From: Deltaproteobacteria bacterium
Lineage (GTDB): Bacteria; Desulfobacterota; Desulfobulbia; Desulfobulbales; SURF-16
NCBI GenBank assembly: GCA_024277655.1
Contig: JAJRUT010000056.1
Location: forward strand, 3,683-67,682
Reading direction: 5' to 3'
Length of the DNA: 64,000 nt
The position numbers and the translations under genes are program-made. The stretch's first letter is position 1; each line of letters opens with the position of its first letter. Positions 2,320-61,389 of the stretch are shown in pieces. The notes under the pieces were generated by a model, which saw only the letters and a program-made list of their open reading frames with translations, had not been told where the DNA came from and ran no database searches.

Positions 2320-3552
2320 ATGGCTAAACGTTATTTGAATTATTTTATTATGGGCTGTTTCTGCCTATTAGTGTCTCCGCTGGCAGGTTTGGCAGACTCC
2401 GCTGATTTAAACTGGAAAAATTGGCTCCAGAAGCAGGTGCAGCAGCACCCGGATGTTCTTGCGGCTGGGAAAAGTATGGATGCCGCCTTGGCGCTTGCCG
2501 AGGGTAATCAGCGGCCTTTGTATAACCCTGAGCTTGAAACGGAGTATGAGCGCAATGGTGATGATGATGTTTACTCTGTGGGCATAAGTCAGACCATTGA
2601 CCTGTGGGATAAGCGCGGGGTTCGCACCAATCAGGCCAACTCCATGCGTGTGGTGGCCCAGATGGGTTATAACCTGGCGGTGCAGGAAAAATTCGCTGAG
2701 GCCATGCGGGCAATCGTTGAATATCAGTCGAGTAAAGAGCTTGTTGGCTTTGCGGAAAAGCAGGAGGCCCAGATGAATACCCTGCTTGGTCTTGTGGAGA
2801 AACGACTGCAGGCTGGTGATATGGGCCAGGTGGATATGGAGCTGGCCTTTTTAGGCTTAAGTCAACGTCTTAATGCCACAGCCCAGGCCAGGGCAACTCT
2901 CCGGCAGCTGGAATCTCGTTTGGGGGAATTATTGCCTGACTGGTCTGAGTCGAAAATACAGATACCGGTCTCTTTTTGGGAGATTAAAGGGGTAAACCTC
3001 ACCTCGCAGGAGCTGGAGCGGTTGCCTTTGGTGGCTGGGGCCCGGGCCGAGTATGAAGTCGTTGAGCATCAGGCCAGGCTTGCTAAACTGGCAAGCAAGG
3101 TTGAACCCACCATTGGCATCAGTGCTGGCGAGGATGGCGAGGAAGATGTGGTGGCTCTGAGCTTGTCGGTGCCCCTTAATTTCCGCAATAATTATCAGGC
3201 AGAGGCAACGGCCTCGACCCTTGAGTCGGTATCGGCAAAGCTTCGCTACCGTGCCCTGAAACGGCAGGCGCATTTTGCTGGCAAAGCTAGTCTTAACGCC
3301 TTTGACGAATATCGTCGCTACTATAAGCGTTGGCAGACCCTGATCCGGGGGCGGGGGGAGACAAGTGACAAATTGCTGGCCCAGCAATGGGATAGTGGTG
3401 ATCTCAGTACCACTGAATATCTCCTTGCTCTGGGGCAGATTACCGAGGGCATGGTTGCTGGAATTGAACTTAGGACCCAGTTTCATCTGGCCTGTGTCGA
3501 CTGGTTGTTTATCTCTGGACAGCTCGGCGTGAGTGCTGAAGACGTAAAATGA
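2320..3552 (+). CDS. TolC-family outer membrane efflux protein (CzcC-like)
   Basis: 410 aa with a signal peptide and two coiled-coil/beta repeats typical of OEP family proteins. First gene of a C-B-A efflux triplet. Confidence 0.85.
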   Translation: MAKRYLNYFIMGCFCLLVSPLAGLADSADLNWKNWLQKQVQQHPDVLAAGKSMDAALALAEGNQRPLYNPELETEYERNGDDDVYSVGISQTIDLWDKRGVRTNQANSMRVVAQMGYNLAVQEKFAEAMRAIVEYQSSKELVGFAEKQEAQMNTLLGLVEKRLQAGDMGQVDMELAFLGLSQRLNATAQARATLRQLESRLGELLPDWSESKIQIPVSFWEIKGVNLTSQELERLPLVAGARAEYEVVEHQARLAKLASKVEPTIGISAGEDGEEDVVALSLSVPLNFRNNYQAEATASTLESVSAKLRYRALKRQAHFAGKASLNAFDEYRRYYKRWQTLIRGRGETSDKLLAQQWDSGDLSTTEYLLALGQITEGMVAGIELRTQFHLACVDWLFISGQLGVSAEDVK

Positions 3553-9467: not shown

Positions 9468-10757
9468 ATGTTACGATCAAGGTTCACCAGAGGCGTATTG
9501 TTACTTGTTGTTTGCATGAGTATGAATATGGGGGGAGCATTTGCCGCTGGGGCAAATAGTTCTACCTTCTTTGCCCAGGGGCAAAAGGCGTATAATGCCG
9601 GTCAACGCAAGGAGGCCTTGAGACTATTCAGAAAGGCTGAGGCGCAGGGCATGAAGAAGGCCTCATTGTACTACAATATCGGCGTCTGCTCCTACAGCCT
9701 TAAGCAATATCCTGAGGCAAAGGCCGCCTTTCAAGAGGTTATTGTTCTGAGCAAGGATATGGCTCCCCTTGCCCATTATAATCTTGGTCTGATTGGTATG
9801 CGGGAGGGCAATCGCCAGGAGATGATTGCTGGCTTTGAGACGGCAATTGCCACAAGCTCCGACCCCAAGATCCGCGATATGGCCGCGGCAGCTCTGGATG
9901 AAAATAATGTCAGGCAGAGGGCTGGTGCAACACCGTATGCCGGCTATTTTGAAATTAGTGTCGGTTATGATGATAATATAGAGTTGTACAGTGACCTATT
10001 GGGAAGTAAGGGCGATGGTGACTGGTTCACTGAAGTGTTTGCGGCAGGAACGATGCCGATTAATGGTGGGACGTTTAGGCGGGGCACTCAGCTGTTTGGT
10101 AGCATGTACTATCAAAAATTTGCCGATTACGATGAGTATGATCTTGGCACGGTTGCTGTTGGTGTTCAGTACCTCTTCGATTACAATGGCTGGAAGATTA
10201 AGCCTGGGGTGGATTACTCCTACACCATCCAGGATACCAAGAGCTATGACCAGACCCCAAGTTTTAGTATCAAGGGTCGCCATGGATTTTACTGGGATAC
10301 CCAGATTCGTTTAAGTTATAAAATAAGTTATATTGATATTCTTGACTCCACCTATGATGCTACCCAGGGAACTAGGAACAAGTTTAGGACTGAGATTATT
10401 AAGAAATGGCAGAAGACCAGTGTAAGTTTGCGCTATACCCTGGAGTTAAATAGCCGTGATAGCGATGACCTCTCTCCCACCAGGAATACAGTTGCCGTTA
10501 AGGTTCGCCATCGCTTTACCGATCAGTTTTCCGGGGTGGCCAGTGTTGCTTTCCGGAACTCAAGTTATGATAATACCGTAGCCTATGACCGGGATGAAGA
10601 TCGCTGGAAGACAACGTTGCGCGGGATATACAAGATTGATCCAATCTGGACTGTCGTTGCGGATTACACTTATAGTGATAACGAAGATAATCAGGCCTAT
10701 GCACGGTATAACTATACGAGAAGTGTGTCGGCCTTGAGACTGGAGAGGTCCTTTTAG
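9468..10757 (+). CDS. TPR-domain + C-terminal beta-barrel outer-membrane protein (Slam/DUF560-like or mini PgaA/BcsC-like architecture)
   Basis: Signal peptide 'MLRSRFTRGVLLLVVCMSMNMGGAFA' and TPR-like repeats in the N-terminal third. The C-terminal part shows an alternating aromatic/polar beta-strand pattern and ends in 'LRLERSF' (terminal Phe). Confidence 0.6.
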   Translation: MLRSRFTRGVLLLVVCMSMNMGGAFAAGANSSTFFAQGQKAYNAGQRKEALRLFRKAEAQGMKKASLYYNIGVCSYSLKQYPEAKAAFQEVIVLSKDMAPLAHYNLGLIGMREGNRQEMIAGFETAIATSSDPKIRDMAAAALDENNVRQRAGATPYAGYFEISVGYDDNIELYSDLLGSKGDGDWFTEVFAAGTMPINGGTFRRGTQLFGSMYYQKFADYDEYDLGTVAVGVQYLFDYNGWKIKPGVDYSYTIQDTKSYDQTPSFSIKGRHGFYWDTQIRLSYKISYIDILDSTYDATQGTRNKFRTEIIKKWQKTSVSLRYTLELNSRDSDDLSPTRNTVAVKVRHRFTDQFSGVASVAFRNSSYDNTVAYDRDEDRWKTTLRGIYKIDPIWTVVADYTYSDNEDNQAYARYNYTRSVSALRLERSF

Positions 10758-27280: not shown

Positions 27281-27584
27281 TGACGAAACCGCTGTGGCTT
27301 GCTGTTGTCTAAAGTAGTGAAATATGGGTTTCCCTTGAGGTTAAAGGCGTTGCTGGCGATAATTTGCTGATGCCCCAGTTGTTGGGGCTGGAGAGAGGGG
27401 GGATTCTTGGGCCAAAGCGGTTTTTATTTGCCGGTATATTGTTGGTTCAATCCTCTCGTGCTACTTGTTATGGTATGTGACGAGGTCAGGTGTTCGTTGT
27501 CGGGGAAAGTGACTAAAAAACGTCTTTTTGTGTTAGGTGTATGGTTTTTTTACCTGTTGCTACAGTTAAAAAACGGTGGTTTCT

Positions 27585-27896
27585 TCACTCCAGCGCAAAT
27601 AGTGGAATCTGGAACCCTTGGCTGAGAGTAACAGTCTGATAGTGCATCCTGGGTGGATCTTCTTGGGGACTTGTTCTTCTTTCTGCTCCGCTCTTTCCTG
27701 CGTGACTCCTCCAAATGGTGTGATATGTGTTTTTGTCTTTGGGGTAAACCAGGTGGGGTTGCCACAGGTGGTACTGGTCGTCGAGGATAAGCTGGGCTTC
27801 CGTTGCGCTGAGCAGAAGTTGGCTTTTTTTGAATTCATAATACTGGTCGATCTTCTCGTCATTATGACCGGTCATAATTTCGGGTTTGCAGTTCAT
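27585..27896 (-). CDS. doubtful hypothetical ORF at the position where gspK would be expected
   Basis: ATGA overlap with the upstream pseudopilin gene, but no prepilin motif and no recognisable domain. Two other frames are open over the same bases. Confidence 0.25.
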   Translation of the reverse strand: MNCKPEIMTGHNDEKIDQYYEFKKSQLLLSATEAQLILDDQYHLWQPHLVYPKDKNTYHTIWRSHAGKSGAERRTSPQEDPPRMHYQTVTLSQGFQIPLFALE

Positions 27897-32053: not shown

Positions 32054-32460
32054 AGGTAGTTCTCTCGGGTTAGTGGCTTGATACTAAGTGATTTTGCGGA
32101 CTCTTTTTTAGTTGTATAACAGATTACAGGTGGCGGAGCCAATTTTTCTTAAGCCATCCTATGGCAGCGGTGTTCAGAGATGGGCATCTTGGCGAACATC
32201 CCGTAAATACAAGAAAAATATAGATTAAACCAACCAATAGGCCTTTTTAGGCTTCTGCTTGACCTGCACCAATGTCCCTGTTAGATATGTGACATGTTGC
32301 CACATGTGGCGATTGCGCTCGGGGGCGGTGTTGAGTGTTTTATGGCTTTGGAATACCAGACTCCTTATGGTACCTATCGTGTTTTGTCGAGGGGTGCTGC
32401 ATTCTGTCTGAAAAACGAAGACATGGTACTGGTTGCAGAACTAACAGGTGGCATTTTCCC

Positions 32461-33162
32461 ATGAAAGAACGTTGTCAGGATTGTAGTCTAAAGCAGATTA
32501 TCGGCACGTCACAGGCCACCCAGGATCTTCTTGTCGAGATGCAGGTCATTGCCGGGGCTGGGGTTGATACGGTCTTGGTGACGGGTGACTCTGGTACGGG
32601 TAAGGAGCTTGTTGCCGGTCATCTGTATAAACTTATGAGTAAGGGGCACAATACTCCTCTTGTTCGGGTGAACTGTGCGGCCTTGCCGGAGGCGCTCCTT
32701 GAAGAGGAATTGTTTGGCCATAGCAAAGGGGCGTTCACCGATGCCAGATGTGATAAAAAGGGACTGTTTGAGCTTGCTGACGGGGGATGTCTGCTCCTTG
32801 ATGAAATTAAGGACAATGCCCCATCCTGTTCCGAGTGTCATGACGGTTCGGGTCAGACTCCGGATGGAACCAAAATGGTTCCCTTTGCTGCTCTTGGCTA
32901 CCAGTCCTTTCCAACCAGTGCGATGTGTTCTCTCTGTCACGAGAGTGAGAGTATGAACTGGGATGATATGCACGCCAAACATGTGGAAGATAAGGGTCTT
33001 GACTGTGTGTCCTGTCATACTACACCACCCACCGGGCTTAGGGCATCCCGCCTGAGCCTCTGTGCCGACTGTCACGACTATGAGTCCGAGACCGATTCGC
33101 AGAATATCCATAATAAGCATGTGAAGGAGAGTATCGGTTGCGCAACCTGTCATACCTTCTAG
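32461..33162 (+). CDS. chimeric ORF: N-terminal half of a sigma-54 activator AAA+ domain fused in frame to a 5xCxxCH cytochrome c-like domain (possible fusion pseudogene)
   Basis: The first part reads 'IIGTSQATQDLL...VLVTGDSGTGKELVAGHLY...LFGHSKGAFTDA...GGCLLLDEI' (Walker A to Walker B). From about 32809 it switches to 'KDNAPSCSECH..CSLCH..CVSCH..CADCH..CATCH'. No signal peptide. The open frame extends upstream to a GTG at 32335. Confidence 0.5.
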   Translation: MKERCQDCSLKQIIGTSQATQDLLVEMQVIAGAGVDTVLVTGDSGTGKELVAGHLYKLMSKGHNTPLVRVNCAALPEALLEEELFGHSKGAFTDARCDKKGLFELADGGCLLLDEIKDNAPSCSECHDGSGQTPDGTKMVPFAALGYQSFPTSAMCSLCHESESMNWDDMHAKHVEDKGLDCVSCHTTPPTGLRASRLSLCADCHDYESETDSQNIHNKHVKESIGCATCHTF

Positions 33163-37466: not shown

Positions 37467-37582
37467 TTTTTTGTAAGAAAGTAGTGGCAGGATGTGCAGA
37501 AGAGAAGTTTATTGCCAGGCTTTCTGGTCTTAAGCTGCTCAATCTTAAGCGTCCTGTAAAAAAAGAGTAGAAATCTCCATGG

Positions 37583-37623
37583 GGCTTGTTTAGAATCGCT
37601 TTTTTCTAAACAAGCCTTTTTTT
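37583..37623 (+). terminator. rho-independent terminator
   Basis: 13-bp stem ggcttgtttagaa/ttctaaacaagcc followed by T7. Confidence 0.8.
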
Positions 37624-37682
37624 ATACCTGGACGCTAATATGGTTTAGCGTCCAGGTTGAACCCTATTTAAAGAATACGACC

Positions 37683-38777
37683 ATGCAAAAACAGCCGCCA
37701 ATCCCAGCATCCTACAGCCAGACCGATGAGTCCGTTCTGGTCGAAAAGATTAAAGCCCACAAAAAAGAATTTGGCGATAGACTGTTGCTTCTAGCTCACC
37801 ATTATCAGGGGGATGCGGTGTTTCAATGTGCCGATGTGGTGGGTGATTCATTGCTTCTGGCCCGGGAAGCGGCTGCAAGTGGGGCTGAACTCATCGTTTT
37901 TTGTGGGGTACATTTTATGGCTGAGTCTGCCGATGTCCTCACTTCGGATTCCCAGGCTGTTTTTCTGCCTCATCTTGATGCCGGTTGCCCCATGGCGGAC
38001 ATGGCCAGTGCCAGGGAGGTCAGTGGAGCCTGGGAGGCCATGGGCGAATTTTGTGATATGGACAGGGTTGTGCCGGTGACCTATGTCAACTCTTCGGCGG
38101 CAATCAAGGCTTTTGTTGGTGAGCGAGGTGGGTCGGTATGCACCTCGTCAAATGCCGAACGGGTTCTGGCGTGAGCCCTTGAGAAGGGAGAAAAGATGTT
38201 CTTTTTTCCCGATGAGCATCTGGGGCGGAATTCAGCCCTTGCCCTGGGTATTGACTCTGAGCATATTCTTCTTTGGAAACGGGGAGAGGTTTTGGGCGGC
38301 AATAGTCCAGAGGCGGTAAAACAGGCTAGGGTTATACTGTGGGATGGTTTTTGCGAAGTGCATATGGAGTTTGATCCGATTCAGGTGGAGCTGTTTCGTA
38401 AGGAATACCCGGAGGGTAAGGTTATTATCCACCCCGAGAGCCGCTACAGTGCGGTGCGCAAGGCCGATGCCTATGGTTCCACCGAGGCTATTATAAAGGC
38501 GGTACGGGAGTCTCCGGCTGGAAGTGTTTGGGCGGTGGGCACTGAGGTGAATCTGGTTAAGCGTTTACAGTTTCAACATCCGGATAAGATCATTAAACTC
38601 CTTGCTCCAGCCTCCTGTGAATGTAAATTCTGCAAAACCATGGGGCTTGTTACCCCGGCAACCCTGCTTTGGCTCCTTGATAATCTGGCAGATGGCAAGA
38701 TGGTAAATCAGATTACCGTGAGTGCGGATATTGCCGCGGCCGCTAAGCTGTCCCTGGCGCGGATGCTTGAAATTTAA
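37683..38777 (+). pseudogene. nadA: quinolinate synthase NadA, single reading frame interrupted by an in-frame TGA at 38172-38174
   Basis: The two ORFs (37683-38174 and 38196-38777) are in the same frame. Read-through gives '...CTSSNAERVLA*ALEKGEKMFFFPDEHLGRN...', contiguous NadA sequence. Fe-S Cys motifs 'DAGCPMADM', 'GFCEVH' and 'CECKFCKTM' are intact. Confidence 0.8.
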
Positions 38778-43098: not shown

Positions 43099-43724
43099 TG
43101 GATATTCAGCCTGACCTTTCGGTTTATGTGGTGGATGTGGGGGGACGTGGTGATTTGCCGGTTTGTGCCGAGTCTGTTCTCGCCCAGAATGATCCGGTGT
43201 TGCTGGAGGTGTTGCTTCCGAGTGGTCGTGGGCTGGAAGACAGCTTCTGCCACCGGTCTGAAGTACAGTTTGTTAATGCGCCCCACGTCGGGCCTGGGGC
43301 CAATATTTATGAAGTGTGGCAACAGGCACGCGGGCGCTATCTTGCCGTAATATACGCCAATGTTGTGGCTGGGGCCGGATGTTTCCTTGGGATGCTCGAT
43401 TTTTTGGATGAACATCCAGATGTCGGTGCGGCCGCGCCTCGTCTCTTTTCCAGAGATAATGTCTTGCAGGGGAACTGTTTTCGCAGGTCGTTTTTGCCGC
43501 GCAAATCTCCCTTGAAAATGAAGGGTTGGGATGGCTTGTCCTCCATGGAGGTTGATTGGCTGGGGCCAGAACTAGTCTTTGTTAATCGTATAGCCTTTGC
43601 CGAATGTGCGGCCCATGATTTTAGTGGGCCACTCTGGTCAAAGAGGATGTGCAAACAGTTGCGGGGCAATGGGTGGCACCAGTTCTTCGTTCATTACTCC
43701 AGGGGGATAGTCTGCTTGGAGTAA
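43098..43724 (+). CDS. glycosyltransferase family 2-like protein with degenerate catalytic motifs
   Basis: GT-A-like order ('LSVYVVDVGG...CAESVLAQ...LEVLLP...GRYLAVIYANVV...LDEHPDVGAAAPRL'), but no clear DxD. The ATG overlaps the upstream stop (TGATG). Confidence 0.4.
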   Translation: MDIQPDLSVYVVDVGGRGDLPVCAESVLAQNDPVLLEVLLPSGRGLEDSFCHRSEVQFVNAPHVGPGANIYEVWQQARGRYLAVIYANVVAGAGCFLGMLDFLDEHPDVGAAAPRLFSRDNVLQGNCFRRSFLPRKSPLKMKGWDGLSSMEVDWLGPELVFVNRIAFAECAAHDFSGPLWSKRMCKQLRGNGWHQFFVHYSRGIVCLE

Positions 43725-43950
43725 TGATGGATTTATTGGTTTTGCAGGCGTGATGGCAATAGGTATTTTTTCTGATAGCTCAAGCCCCTGAAAACAACGT
43801 AAAATCAATTTATTGTTATTCTTATTGACAATAAAAGCCTAAAACGCTAATTTCCCAGTCGTTTGACTTTATTATGAGACGGATTTATTTCAGGCGTTGC
43901 CTTGTGTGAATGTCTGCCTAAACAGATTAAAATATATCAGGAGAAGTTGG

Positions 43951-44847
43951 ATGGGACAGGTCGTACTTGCAATTGCTGAAAGCATTAATATTATGGGTAA
44001 TAGAAGTGGCGGAGCCATGAAAAAGCGTATTCCTGGGCCTATTCAGGAAATGGCTGGTGAAGAAACTGCTGCCGGTGCTACCTATCTGGATTTGAATATT
44101 GGCCCGGCCCGTAAGGACGGGACAGAGCTTATGCCATGGATTGTTGATGTGATGGAATCCGTGACTGATACGCCTCTCTGTCTTGATACCACCAATACCG
44201 AAGCTATGACTGCCGGGTTTAAGTCTATAAAAAATCCCCACACCGCCATTATGAACTCCATTTCGGCCCAGCCCGAACGGATGGAGAAGCTGATCCCTGT
44301 GGCGGCTGAGGTTGGCTGTAACGTCATTGCTCTCCTCTGGGGGCCTGATGGTATGCCCCGTGATTCCAACGAGCGCGCCTCCATGTCCGTTGAGCTTCTT
44401 ATGGCCTTGAATGATGCCGGTATCCCCAACGAAAAGATTTTGTTTGATCCAATCGGTACCCCCATGACCCTTGGTTCCGATCAGATCATGGCCGGTCTGG
44501 AGTTTATGGAAATGCTGAAAGATATTGCGCCCGGTGCCGGTTCCACCGTTGGCTTGTCCAACGTCTCAAACGGTGTTGCCGAGCATCTTCGCAAGCATCT
44601 TGATCGCACCTACCTCATCATGCTGATGAAAACAGGTTTGACCACAGCCATCGTTAATTCCTACGATAAGGAACTTATGGCAATCTGTAATGGTGAGCGT
44701 CAGGCCGATGTGGATATGGTTTACGGTATGATGGATGGTAATGATCCTGATCCGTCCACCCTGTCCGGTGTGACCCTTGAGCATTATAAGACCTATAAGG
44801 TGTTGTCCGGTCAGATTCTCTTCAGTGAGTCTTGGCTTGAACTGTAA
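43951..44847 (+). CDS. pterin-binding methyltetrahydrofolate:corrinoid methyltransferase (MeTr/AcsE-like)
   Basis: 'AESINIMG', 'YLDLNIGPA' and 'LCLDTTN' motifs of the MeTr/DHPS-like TIM barrel. AGGAGA RBS before ATG 43951. Confidence 0.8.
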   Translation: MGQVVLAIAESINIMGNRSGGAMKKRIPGPIQEMAGEETAAGATYLDLNIGPARKDGTELMPWIVDVMESVTDTPLCLDTTNTEAMTAGFKSIKNPHTAIMNSISAQPERMEKLIPVAAEVGCNVIALLWGPDGMPRDSNERASMSVELLMALNDAGIPNEKILFDPIGTPMTLGSDQIMAGLEFMEMLKDIAPGAGSTVGLSNVSNGVAEHLRKHLDRTYLIMLMKTGLTTAIVNSYDKELMAICNGERQADVDMVYGMMDGNDPDPSTLSGVTLEHYKTYKVLSGQILFSESWLEL

Positions 44848-51334: not shown

Positions 51335-52849
51335 ATGATTGATATTAGTCAAGACCTGCGTCGATCAAAGGTCACCACTCCTGCCCTGATGTTTCAGGGA
51401 ACCTGCTCCAATGCCGGGAAATCCATTTTGACTGCTGCCCTCTGCCGTATTTTCTTGCAGGACGGGTTGTCCGTTGCCCCGTTCAAGGCGCAGAATATGT
51501 CGCTGAACTCCTATGTCACCCGCTACGGCGAAGAGATGGGCCGGGCCCAGGTGGTGCAGGCCCAGGCCGCGCGCCTTGACCCCGATGTGCGGATGAATCC
51601 GGTGCTGTTAAAGCCCTCTTCCGATACGGGCAGTCAGGTGATTGTTATGGGCAAGCCGGTGGCTAATATGAGCGTTGGCGATTATCTGCGCTATAAACCG
51701 GAGGTGTTTGGTCGGGTGCATGAGGCGTATGATTCCCTGGCCCGTGAGCATCAAGTTATGGTGCTTGAAGGGGCAGGTAGTCCGGCCGAGGTGAATCTCA
51801 AGCACCACGATATCGTCAATATGCCCATGGCGCGTTACGCAGGAGCCAAGGTGCTGCTGGTGGGGGATATTGATCGGGGTGGGATCTTTGCCTCTTTTGT
51901 GGGAACCATGGAGATTCTTGATGAGTGGGAACGGGATCTAATGGCGGGTTTTGTGGTCAATCGCTTTCGGGGCCAGAAGTCGCTACTAGATGATGCCCTG
52001 ACCTACATGGAGGACAAAACAGGCAAGCCTATGCTTGGTGTTATTGATTATTTGCAGAATCTTGGCCTGCCTGAAGAGGACTCGGTGAGCTTTAAGGCCG
52101 GTCTTTTTGAGGCACATTACTCGGACTCTGCCGAGGTTGATCTGGCCTTGATTGATCTGCCCCATATCTCTAACTTTACCGATTTTGAGCCGTTTATTGG
52201 CGAACCTGATGTGAATATCCGCTTGGTACAGCGGGGAGATGAGCTTGGCGAGCCGTCGGCCATTTTACTCCCCGGCAGTAAGAATGTTATGGCTGATGCG
52301 GTATTTCTCCACGAGTCGGGTCTTGCTGACCAGATTATGGCAAGGGCAGGTCAGAAGACCCCTGTGGTGGGTATCTGCGGAGGCTTTCAACTTCTCGGCA
52401 AGAGTGTCGCCGATCCCAACCAGATTGAGTCTACAGACGGTGTAGTTCAGGGTTTGGGGTTGCTGGAATTTGCCACGATCCTTGAAAAAGAAAAAACCCT
52501 CACCCTTAAATCAGGAGTTCATCTTGCTTCAGGTTGCGCTGTTCGCGGTTATGAAATTCATCATGGTATCAGCAGCGGTCAGCAAGAATCGTTGTTGCAG
52601 TTCACAGATGGAGAGCGGGCCGGGGTCTGTTCCGCTGATGGTCTTATCTGGGGCTCCTACCTGCACGGTGTTTTTGACGCCGACCCCTTTCGCCGCTGGT
52701 TTATTGATGGGTTGCGGCTAAGACAGGGGCTGGAACCACTTACAGAGGTGCAGTCCGGCTATGATCTGGAACCCGCCTTTGAGCGACTGGCTACGGCAGT
52801 ACGGGAACAACTGGACATGGATAAAATCTACACGATTCTCGGTCTGTAA
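51335..52849 (+). CDS. cobQ: cobyric acid synthase CobQ/CbiP
   Basis: 'MFQGTCSNAGKS', 'PFKAQNMSLNS', and a C-terminal GATase domain with 'ICGGFQ'. Confidence 0.92.
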   Translation: MIDISQDLRRSKVTTPALMFQGTCSNAGKSILTAALCRIFLQDGLSVAPFKAQNMSLNSYVTRYGEEMGRAQVVQAQAARLDPDVRMNPVLLKPSSDTGSQVIVMGKPVANMSVGDYLRYKPEVFGRVHEAYDSLAREHQVMVLEGAGSPAEVNLKHHDIVNMPMARYAGAKVLLVGDIDRGGIFASFVGTMEILDEWERDLMAGFVVNRFRGQKSLLDDALTYMEDKTGKPMLGVIDYLQNLGLPEEDSVSFKAGLFEAHYSDSAEVDLALIDLPHISNFTDFEPFIGEPDVNIRLVQRGDELGEPSAILLPGSKNVMADAVFLHESGLADQIMARAGQKTPVVGICGGFQLLGKSVADPNQIESTDGVVQGLGLLEFATILEKEKTLTLKSGVHLASGCAVRGYEIHHGISSGQQESLLQFTDGERAGVCSADGLIWGSYLHGVFDADPFRRWFIDGLRLRQGLEPLTEVQSGYDLEPAFERLATAVREQLDMDKIYTILGL

Positions 52850-53814
52850 TGACAAACCATCTCCTGCATATTTTCCTTGCCCTTATTCTCGACCAACTAC
52901 TCGGTGATCCCCGCTGGTTTCCCCACCCTGTTCGCCTTATTGGCAGGTTGCAACTGCGCTGTGAAAGGCTGACGCGGGCCTATTTAAGCGCAAAGCTTGC
53001 AGGGGTTGTTACGCTTATACTCTCTTTAAGTGCTGTGATGATTGTGGTGGCCCTGTTACTCCTTGTTGCCATAGAGGTTCATCCTCTGGCCTATCATGCA
53101 ATGTCTGTTTTTTTGCTCTACACCTGTTTTGCCACCCGGGATCTGGCCCGGCATGGGCGCTGGGTGTACCAGGCCCTGCAAGAGGATAATCTTGATTTGG
53201 CGCGGACAAGGGTAGGCTGGATTGTCGGGCGTGACACCGCAGAGCTTGACCGGGCCGGGGTGACGCGGGCCGGGGTTGAAAGTGTGGCAGAGAGCCTAGT
53301 GGATGGGGTCACAGCCCCTCTCTTTTATGCCTTTCTGGGTGGGCCGATAGGCGCCATGTTTTACAAGGCGATTAATACCGGCGACTCCATGTTTGGCTAT
53401 AAGAATGATCGGTACCGGGAGTTCGGTTGGGCGGCGGCAAAACTTGATGATGTGGCAAACTTTATTCCGGCCCGTCTCACCGCCTGGTTTATTCCTGTCT
53501 CTGCCCTGATCCTTGGCCTAGATTTTAAAAATAGTCGCCGTATTCTCAAACGTGATTGTCGCAATCATGCCAGCCCAAACTCCGGCTACTCCGAGGCCGC
53601 GGTTGCCGGTGCCTTAGGTATTCAGCTTGGTGGCACCAATATCTATTTTGGTAAACCTGTACGTAAACCAACCATTGGTGATGTGGGGCAGGCAGTCAAG
53701 CCAAGGCACCTCTTGCAGACGATTCAGCTTATGGAGGTGACCACTCTGCTGGTGTTTGGCGTGGGTTGTGGTCTAGGCTGGTCTATAATGGTTCTGGGGA
53801 GCCATTTTCTTTGA
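52849..53814 (+). CDS. cbiB: adenosylcobinamide-phosphate synthase CbiB/CobD
   Basis: 'LGDPRWFPHPVRLIG' and the polytopic membrane pattern. The start overlaps the cobQ stop. Confidence 0.9.
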   Translation: MTNHLLHIFLALILDQLLGDPRWFPHPVRLIGRLQLRCERLTRAYLSAKLAGVVTLILSLSAVMIVVALLLLVAIEVHPLAYHAMSVFLLYTCFATRDLARHGRWVYQALQEDNLDLARTRVGWIVGRDTAELDRAGVTRAGVESVAESLVDGVTAPLFYAFLGGPIGAMFYKAINTGDSMFGYKNDRYREFGWAAAKLDDVANFIPARLTAWFIPVSALILGLDFKNSRRILKRDCRNHASPNSGYSEAAVAGALGIQLGGTNIYFGKPVRKPTIGDVGQAVKPRHLLQTIQLMEVTTLLVFGVGCGLGWSIMVLGSHFL

Positions 53815-59287: not shown

Positions 59288-59947
59288 ATGACAACGTGGC
59301 AAATAAAAAATAGGGGTATGGACTTGCAGCCACCCCTCGTGGTTCTTCCCGGTTGGGGGTTTACGGGGGCAGTGTTTACTGAACACCCGGTCTTTTCCTC
59401 GGAAAACCTGATCACCTGCATGGACTTTCCTACCCCCTTGATGCTGACGGAGTTGCTTGATTTTTTAGACGCCAGGCAGATTGATAGAGTGCGGGTTTTG
59501 GGCTGGTCAATGGGGGGGAATCTGGCTATTGATCTGGCCCTTAAGCACCCACAATATATCGCATCCCTTACGCTTGTGGCGGTGCGCCGGAGTTGGCCTG
59601 GTGATGAGGTTGCTGTTACCAGGCAAGGGTTGTTGGTACCGGAACAGGGGCTGGTAAAATTCCACAGGAAATGTTTTTTAGGGGCGAAAAAAGAGTATAA
59701 CCGGGTTCTGCCTCTACTTACCCTGCCGGAGGGTGAGGCAGAGCTTGCCGTTCTTGATGGCGGCTTGGCGTATCTTGCCTCCTACGCCATGCCTAAATCC
59801 CTGCCGTTTCCAGTGAAGATCATTCAGGGCGATAAAGATGTTGTTTGTCCCCAGTCTGAAATGGTAAAGTTTGCCTCAAAAACGGAAACGCTCATCCTGG
59901 CCGGGGCGGGACATTTCCTCTTCTCTCATCCTGAGTTTACGCTATGA
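59288..59947 (+). CDS. alpha/beta hydrolase, BioH-like pimeloyl-ACP methyl ester esterase candidate
   Basis: Nucleophile elbow 'GWSMGG'. ATGA overlap with bioC. Confidence 0.6.
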   Translation: MTTWQIKNRGMDLQPPLVVLPGWGFTGAVFTEHPVFSSENLITCMDFPTPLMLTELLDFLDARQIDRVRVLGWSMGGNLAIDLALKHPQYIASLTLVAVRRSWPGDEVAVTRQGLLVPEQGLVKFHRKCFLGAKKEYNRVLPLLTLPEGEAELAVLDGGLAYLASYAMPKSLPFPVKIIQGDKDVVCPQSEMVKFASKTETLILAGAGHFLFSHPEFTL

Positions 59948-60717
59948 TTCGTCGCAAACAAGAGATACGCAAACGCTTTGACCGGGCGGCCGCAACCTAC
60001 GATGGTTACGCTGATGTGCAGCAGGAGACAGCTGCGGAATTATGTTCTTTGTTGGTGGGCCATAGTCCCAAAACGGTTCTTGAACTGGGGTGCGGTACCG
60101 GTGGCTTTACGCAAATGTTGGTGGATCTCTTGCCTGGGGCATCCTTTACTGGTCTTGATTTCTCTGGGGCCATGGTCGCTAAGGCCAAGGCGAAAAACAG
60201 AGGCGCAAAGACCAAGTTTTACTGCGTTGATTGTGAGGAGTATCTTGCGGAGACGCGGAAACAGTTTAATTGCATCTGTGCAAACGCCACTTTCCAGTGG
60301 TTTCAGGAACCGGCCCTCGTTCTTCAGCATATTCAGCGCTCTCTTGCGCCCCAGGGGATGTTTGTGGCCTCGGTATTTGGCCCCGATAGTTTGGCTGAGC
60401 TTGGCGCCGGATTGCAGGCTGTAATGGGGCAAGAATACACCTTGGCTTCACCGCAATTTCTGGGCAAAAAACAGCTCCACACTCTATGTCACAGGTTCTG
60501 CGAGGTGGAGATTTATGAACGGGTCTACGAACGGAGCTATGCCACTATTTACGATTTACTCAAGGTTATAAAGTATACCGGCACCGGGGGCTATCATCCC
60601 CTTGTACCCCGTTTTAATAAAACGAATTTACAAAATCTTAGCGACTGGTTTATGGCCCGTGGTGGTTTTACGGTGCAGTATCAGGTCTTTTTTCTAAAGG
60701 CCCGGAAGGGGGAATAG
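59944..60717 (+). CDS. bioC: malonyl-ACP O-methyltransferase BioC
   Basis: 'FDRAAATYDGYADVQQ' and 'VLELGCGTG'. Confidence 0.8.
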   Translation: MIRRKQEIRKRFDRAAATYDGYADVQQETAAELCSLLVGHSPKTVLELGCGTGGFTQMLVDLLPGASFTGLDFSGAMVAKAKAKNRGAKTKFYCVDCEEYLAETRKQFNCICANATFQWFQEPALVLQHIQRSLAPQGMFVASVFGPDSLAELGAGLQAVMGQEYTLASPQFLGKKQLHTLCHRFCEVEIYERVYERSYATIYDLLKVIKYTGTGGYHPLVPRFNKTNLQNLSDWFMARGGFTVQYQVFFLKARKGE

Positions 60718-61389
60718 ATGGCGGAGAAAATCTTTATAACCGGCACGGATACGGATATTGGCAAGACCGTGGTGAGTGCTCTTCTTGCGGGTTATCTTCG
60801 TGAGCAGGGAATTAATTGCGGGTATCTAAAGCTTGTGAGTTGTGGTGGCGATGGGTGTGGCGATTGTACCTATGTCCGGAATCTGGCTGGAGTTCCGGTG
60901 CATAATGTCTATCATTTTCCCCTGCCGGCCTCCCCCCACCTTGCTGCAGAGCAGGCCGGGGAGACCATTGATGTGCGTAAGTTTGACCGGGCTATGGAGC
61001 AGATGGGAAATAAGCACGATCTGCTCCTTATAGAGGGTGCGGGGGGGCTCCTTGTGCCCCTGACCAGGTCTCTGCTGTTGGGGGATTATATGGCGGGCCA
61101 AGATGTCCAGACCTTGGTGGTCACGAGGTCTGGTCTGGGAACCATCAATCAGACCCTTTTAACCCTTGCAGCCCTTGAACAGCGTGGTTTTTCTCCTCTG
61201 GGGTTGGTCTTCAACGATGAACATCTGTATGCTGAGGATGATTTGCTGGTGGTTGATAATCAGCATCTTCTCGGGGATCTGTCTCTGGTGCCTGTTCTGG
61301 GCAGAGTGCATCGTTTTGATTCGTGGGATAGGGGACGTCAGGCATTTCAAACGATTGGTCAGGAATTTTTGATGCGTCTTCGTGGATGA
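60718..61389 (+). CDS. bioD: dethiobiotin synthase BioD
   Basis: 'IFITGTDTDIGKTVVS' P-loop and 'EGAGGLLVP'. Confidence 0.9.
   Translation: MAEKIFITGTDTDIGKTVVSALLAGYLREQGINCGYLKLVSCGGDGCGDCTYVRNLAGVPVHNVYHFPLPASPHLAAEQAGETIDVRKFDRAMEQMGNKHDLLLIEGAGGLLVPLTRSLLLGDYMAGQDVQTLVVTRSGLGTINQTLLTLAALEQRGFSPLGLVFNDEHLYAEDDLLVVDNQHLLGDLSLVPVLGRVHRFDSWDRGRQAFQTIGQEFLMRLRG

Follow-up and report, generated by a model that had tools for sequence, protein, structure and literature searches.

In-frame TGA at an invariant tryptophan codon of an otherwise intact quinolinate synthase gene (nadA) in a Desulfobulbaceae-like bacterium

In the 64,000-nucleotide stretch of DNA analysed here (the window), the quinolinate synthase gene nadA carries one in-frame TGA where its relatives have the TGG of an invariant tryptophan. 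We regard this as a real, very recent nonsense mutation, TGG>TGA, in an otherwise intact orthologous nadA, with a probability of roughly 60%; all readings other than a real mutation or an artefact are improbable, even taken together. The event is thus an ordinary nonsense change or a miscall: it is not selenocysteine, it is not an alternative genetic code, and it is not a demonstrable programmed event.

Table 1 Features of the nadA locus (positions in the window)
Feature	Position	Strand	Remarks
Intrinsic terminator of the upstream CSD/RaiA gene	37581..37618	+	Conserved
nadA (quinolinate synthase)	37683..38777	+	364 codons including one in-frame TGA
N-terminal fragment, 163 aa (P0145 in the public record)	37683..38171	+	Only cluster cysteine: C102 (codon 37986-37988)
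In-frame TGA	38172..38174	+	Codon 164; TGG>TGA is G>A at 38174, by homologue comparison
Shine-Dalgarno-like AAGGGAG	38184..38190	+	5 nt before ATG 38196; read directly
11-bp hairpin GGGAGAAAAGA-UGU-UCUUUUUUCCC	38186..38210	+	Gly-Glu-Lys codons pair with Phe-Phe-Phe-Pro codons
C-terminal ORF, 193 aa (P0146)	38196..38777	+	C224 (38352-38354), C317 (38631-38633); starts at first ATG after the stop

The preliminary description had reported two nadA ORFs in the same frame with a TGA between them, and both the sequence and the reading frame confirm this. The frame opens with ATG 37683 and closes with TAA 38775-38777, whereas a mechanical ORF list gives it as two entries, 37683..38174 (163 aa) and 38196..38777 (193 aa). 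Around the site, the plus strand reads ...GTT CTG GCG TGA GCC CTT GAG AAG GGA GAA AAG ATG TTC TTT TTT CCC.... When the stop was masked, the joined translation matched NF006884 in an NCBIfam profile search with residues 3-363 (E 7.7e-128) and TIGR00550 with residues 15-364 (301.8 bits; cutoff: 262.9), so that it is recognized as NadA by profile (TIGR00550 / PF02445), and NadA chains from the PDB matched it with E values of about 1e-30. Since the NadA profiles run continuously across the stop, we conclude that this is one gene and not two chance ORFs. Its sole lesion is the TGA at codon 164, which breaks the uninterrupted frame of a NadA gene. The three Fe-S cysteines had been described as preserved, and indeed the alignment places C102, C224 and C317 on the ligand cysteines of the solved NadA structures from P. 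horikoshii and T. maritima, and the three do not vary among the homologues; following the established NadA literature, we take them to be the [4Fe-4S] ligands, one per NadA domain.

Aligning homologues over the TGA column had been proposed as a check, and the outcome was clear: the column holds Trp in all of the 120 closest protein homologues (the best 120 matches in a large protein collection) and never Cys. These matches are uninterrupted NadA proteins of 348-388 aa with 59-80% identity, mostly from metagenome bins of Desulfobulbaceae and other Thermodesulfobacteriota, and the Trp column sits in the invariant stretch VCTSSNAERVL-x-W-AL-xx-GEK-x-FFFPDEHLGRN. At the DNA level, the codon is TGG in 88 and AGA in one of 89 related loci from many phyla, and none of these 89 loci has an internal stop in nadA. 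The 90%-identity cluster that contains P0145 and P0146 has one further member, P0147, a full-length NadA of 364 aa that comes from two independent read-set assemblies (L088 and L089) and belongs to a strain different from that of the window. P0147 and the window gene are equal in length and share 93% amino-acid and 89.6% nucleotide identity; this nearest relative reads GCG TGG GCC at the site, and the local sequence is otherwise nearly identical. The unbroken conservation of Trp, together with TGG in all but one locus and in the nearest relative, therefore identifies the event as TGG>TGA, a single transition. Judging from the sequences compared, the G>A at 38174 is specific to the lineage of the window. 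A degenerate DNA pattern for ERVLxWALxxGEKMFFFPDEHLG found one distant contig only among the metagenome contigs (metagenome_contigs), and in a scan of genome contigs (genome_contigs) the relatives among the matches listed were all at most 61% identical.

The gene order QueC - GH3 - CSD/RaiA - NadA - GlmS - RACo (GH3, glycoside hydrolase 3) is common to the window and the related loci L081-L086 and L088. This conserved synteny shows that the nadA of the window is the orthologous copy and not a spare one. The terminator upstream of nadA is conserved too, so that nadA is probably transcribed alone. Between this terminator and the nadA start lies a perfect 13-bp inverted repeat, ACCTGGACGCTAA-N6-TTAGCGTCCAGGT (37626-37657), perhaps an operator or a small insertion; we rejected it as a conserved operator, as it is missing from the spacers of L088, L081, L085 and L086 and has no other copy in the window. 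In L086 (GCA_053937105.1), CCCCTAA heptamer repeats directly precede nadA (about 9960-10000), and these are absent from the window.

We then compared the coding sequence of nadA with that of L088. The preliminary description had seen no decay besides the TGA, and this holds in every respect considered: there are no added stops or frameshifts, the dN/dS is low and the conserved columns are kept. The dN/dS was 0.093 overall, 0.128 upstream and 0.075 downstream of the stop, and the last value shows no relaxation in the C-terminal ORF; for the neighbouring glmS it was 0.044 at a similar dS (0.44, compared with 0.42 for nadA). Such purifying selection, averaged over dS = 0.42, is blind to a recent loss of function. 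When the amino-acid substitutions were polarised with twelve outgroups, five fell on the window branch, all of them conservative, and six on the branch of the relative. Among 136 columns with a conservation of at least 97%, the window gene deviates at one besides the stop (I85V, conservative), which is within the range of intact homologues (median: 0, maximum: 8). A decayed pseudogene is thereby rejected (dN/dS 0.09, five versus six branch changes, one conserved-column change), and nadA is at most an incipient pseudogene. Since the gene shows no decay, the stop is either very young or an artefact.

Several other features of the window were recorded. A type II secretion gene resembling gspK is reduced to a remnant at 27572-27875 on the minus strand, where the last ~105 codons are left in two frames; only residues 216-320 of the 321-aa L086 orthologue match, the first ~215 codons are gone, and the type II secretion genes flanking the remnant are intact. 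In three contigs of close relatives that were found via the RACo gene and end short of nadA (L090-L092), a 134-aa response-regulator gene lies between a 213-aa gene and the pterin-binding gene (L090: 4634-5038, L091: 2970-3374, L092: 3196-3600); nothing in the window matches it, and the corresponding interval there (43724-43951) spans just ~230 bp. The first part of the plus-strand ORF 32335-33162 is the AAA+ domain of a sigma-54 activator, which breaks off at profile position 105 of 168, after ...LLLDEIKD; the frame then runs on into a five-haem cytochrome segment, in which five CXXCH haem-binding motifs are found. This ORF is missing from the corresponding L086 interval and resembles the scar of a rearrangement or a chimeric join. 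A biotin-synthesis-like cluster at 59288-61389 encodes an alpha/beta hydrolase (BioH-like), a methyltransferase (BioC-like) and an AAA_26 protein (BioD-like), and cobalamin genes lie nearby (CobQ-like: 51335-52849, CobD: 52849-53814). As all of these genes appear intact, there is no general decay of cofactor biosynthesis in the window. Finally, GGWCC is strongly avoided in the window (GGACC: 8 observed, 45.7 expected; GGTCC: 12 observed, 50.2 expected), as are GCCGGC (5 observed, 25.8 expected) and TGATCA (8 observed, 30.5 expected), which suggests pressure from restriction-modification systems of those specificities.

A single in-frame TGA exactly at a Trp position is what a UGA=Trp code (table 4 or similar) could leave behind, but the use of TGA in the rest of the window refutes a genome-wide reassignment there. 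Among 53 long ORFs, TAA is the stop of 20, TAG of 17 and TGA of 16, including the nadA stop, so that TGA is the normal stop of about 30% of the window genes; the stops at 580-582 and 3550-3552, cited earlier as ordinary, are confirmed, and the initial lean against recoding is borne out. Four of the 15 other TGA-ended genes were compared with their relatives, and all four match the relatives' ends: RACo, HisD and a multihaem cytochrome do so to within one or two residues, and the end of CobD was assessed from Pfam profile coverage only. Instead of the many in-frame TGA codons at Trp positions that mark a reassigned code, the 52 other ORFs contain about 180 TGG codons and none of these genes is split by a TGA; nadA is the only gene in which two same-frame pieces share one family.

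Selenocysteine at position 164 would make NadA a selenoprotein. In favour of this reading, a stable hairpin begins within 12 nt of the in-frame UGA, and many Desulfobulbales-type bacteria encode selenoproteins. However, homologues of bacterial selenoproteins that have no selenocysteine normally carry Cys at the aligned position, whereas here the aligned residue is always Trp, never Cys or selenocysteine; moreover, position 164 is predicted to lie within a helix, outside the active site. The small hairpin CCCTT-gag-AAGGG that had been noted at 38176-38188 is present in the sequence but unused in the minimum-energy fold, in which the hairpin of Table 1 replaces it. The latter begins ~12 nt after the UGA and consists of an 11-bp stem, in which the purine-rich Gly-Glu-Lys codons face the pyrimidine-rich Phe-Phe-Phe-Pro codons, and a 3-nt UGU loop. 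It forms equally in the TGG-bearing genes of L088 (1065-1089), L081 and L086, with z-scores of -2 to -2.8 in three of the four sequences, and is therefore not a SECIS element or a readthrough signal specific to the UGA-bearing gene; most simply, it follows from the codons of the conserved peptide GEKMFFFP. The hairpin would also occlude the Shine-Dalgarno-like sequence and ATG 38196 of the window gene. No SECIS element, riboswitch or other Rfam family was found in the window at gathering thresholds, and near nadA only noise appeared at E <= 10, with no Rfam family for the hairpin; the annotated ORFs of the window gave no sel-like Pfam matches, and the window contains no tRNA genes. Selenocysteine is thus effectively refuted, as the preliminary description had leaned towards.

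Recoding of codon 164 as Trp, by near-cognate tRNA-Trp, a tRNA-Trp with a 4-bp anticodon stem or a UCA suppressor, and production of NadA as two polypeptides through reinitiation at ATG 38196 are the remaining ways in which the allele could be functional. Since the lost residue is Trp, misreading of UGA by Trp-tRNA yields the wild-type protein, and the downstream half of the gene still shows purifying selection, although the divergence over which it is averaged is too large to detect a recent loss. In E. coli K-12, UGA readthrough by Trp-tRNA competing with RF2 amounts to 2-4% (PMC10570021); 0.3% of standard-code genomes carry suppressor tRNAs, and tRNA-Trp with a 4-bp stem is found in diverse bacteria, including standard-code ones (PMC13092985). 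Programmed readthrough is contradicted by the distribution of the stop, which is absent from the closest relative (93% amino-acid identity) and from all others, and by the downstream structure, which is not specific to this allele; the UGAG context of the stop also ends six other genes of the window. A restart at ATG 38196, proposed earlier, is mechanically possible: this is indeed the first start codon 3' of the stop, it lies 22 nt after it, and the Shine-Dalgarno-like site stands 5 nt before it. However, both this site and the ATG are conserved (E/K)KGEKM codons that are also present in the intact relative L088, and reinitiation would drop eight residues, W164-K171, including the invariant Trp. 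In an AlphaFold model of P0001, which is 80% identical to the window NadA (mean pLDDT: 92), Trp-164 lies within helix 160-170, followed by strand 173-177 (KMFFF); according to this model, the TGA interrupts a helix of the second domain and does not coincide with a domain boundary. Since the cluster cysteines are split 1 + 2 (C102 / C224 + C317), neither fragment should be able to hold the [4Fe-4S] cluster alone. Taken together, functional recoding or reinitiation is very unlikely, and we consider it a long shot that UGA is maintained in a standard-code bacterium and usefully decoded as Trp, throttling NadA, or, as a rarer variant, that a two-piece NadA is assembled from fragments 1-163 and 172-364.

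This leaves the two explanations of the preliminary description that stand after the comparison (one conserved-column change, low dN/dS, balanced branches): a very recent nonsense mutation and a TGG-to-TGA base-call error. In the latter case, the organism has TGG, and the A at 38174 is a miscall introduced in sequencing, polishing or consensus building, or a minor allele in a metagenome-assembled consensus. A lone stop in a gene that is otherwise perfect, with conserved columns intact and a branch that is not accelerated, is also how such an error or minor allele looks, and the halves P0145 and P0146 are known from one contig and one source; all other nadA genes examined are uninterrupted. Nevertheless, no other sign of poor base quality was seen in the window, and twelve neighbouring orthologues align over their full length in a single frame without frameshifts, which shows that the assembly is not error-ridden. 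We also considered miscalling linked to a methylation motif, since the site with TGG restored reads GGGCCC. This candidate was rejected: GGGCCC occurs 12 times in the window and GAGCCC once, compared with 11.8 expected, so that GAGCCC is not enriched. By a rough estimate, which assumes short-read-level accuracy, a real nonsense allele is more likely than one random substitution in 64 kb that hits one of the few stop-creating sites. TGG can become a stop codon through two different single-base changes; each of them is a G>A transition, and no class of spontaneous change is more common. Other inactivating events in the same 64 kb, namely the gspK-like remnant, the missing response-regulator gene and the truncated sigma-54 activator, make real gene loss in this lineage plausible. 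Against a real mutation stands the cost of losing de novo NAD synthesis in a cell that lacks salvage genes, and no NAD salvage genes were found in the 64-kb window. The indirect evidence weakly favours a real allele over an error, and we regard the artefact as possible but doubtful.

If the nonsense mutation is real, a single G>A at 38174 would have converted the TGG of the invariant Trp-164 to TGA in the chromosomal nadA of the strain or population behind the contig, very recently on the scale of the divergence considered here. RF2 would then end most translation after residue 163, and since the resulting 163-aa fragment carries one of the three [4Fe-4S] cysteines, it could not be active, which presumes the established role of these residues in NadA. 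De novo quinolinate synthesis would be lost or cut to a trickle, and the cell would rely on salvage of niacin or another NAD precursor, or on the trace amounts of full-length enzyme that misreading of UGA by Trp-tRNA(CCA) would supply. Among nonsense changes, TGG>TGA is the only type in which background misreading puts the original amino acid back. A real mutation would represent the first step of gene loss toward niacin auxotrophy in an environmental sulfur-cycle bacterium. Otherwise the case is of little consequence except for annotation: one nadA entry with an internal stop (pseudogene or low-quality base) should replace the two proteins of the public gene calls, and de novo NAD synthesis should be treated as doubtful in metabolic reconstructions of this genome.

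Among known systems, bacterial selenoprotein genes such as fdhF share with the window gene an in-frame UGA with a hairpin about 12 nt downstream, but nadA homologues have Trp instead of Cys or selenocysteine, and the hairpin is a coding by-product that is found in TGG genes as well. In the UGA=Trp codes of Mycoplasmatales, Ca. Zinderia and some Patescibacteriota (PMC13092985), UGA likewise stands where Trp is required; in contrast, TGA is an ordinary stop in the window, and one gene has it internally. Leaky UGA termination in E. coli K-12 is similar in that Trp is inserted at a UGA codon, so that misreading at codon 164 would recreate the native protein; it is, however, a general background error, and the site in the window is unmarked by context, structure or conservation. 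Inactivations of nadA and nadB are known from Shigella. A close parallel in kind is the single-base nadA lesion that causes niacin auxotrophy in E. coli NC101 (PMC8207962). That allele is missense and the present one nonsense, and the carrier here is an uncultured Desulfobulbaceae-like bacterium, but in both cases a single base is changed in an intact nadA, and in NC101 this change knocks out de novo quinolinate synthesis, so that salvage is needed (PMC8207962).
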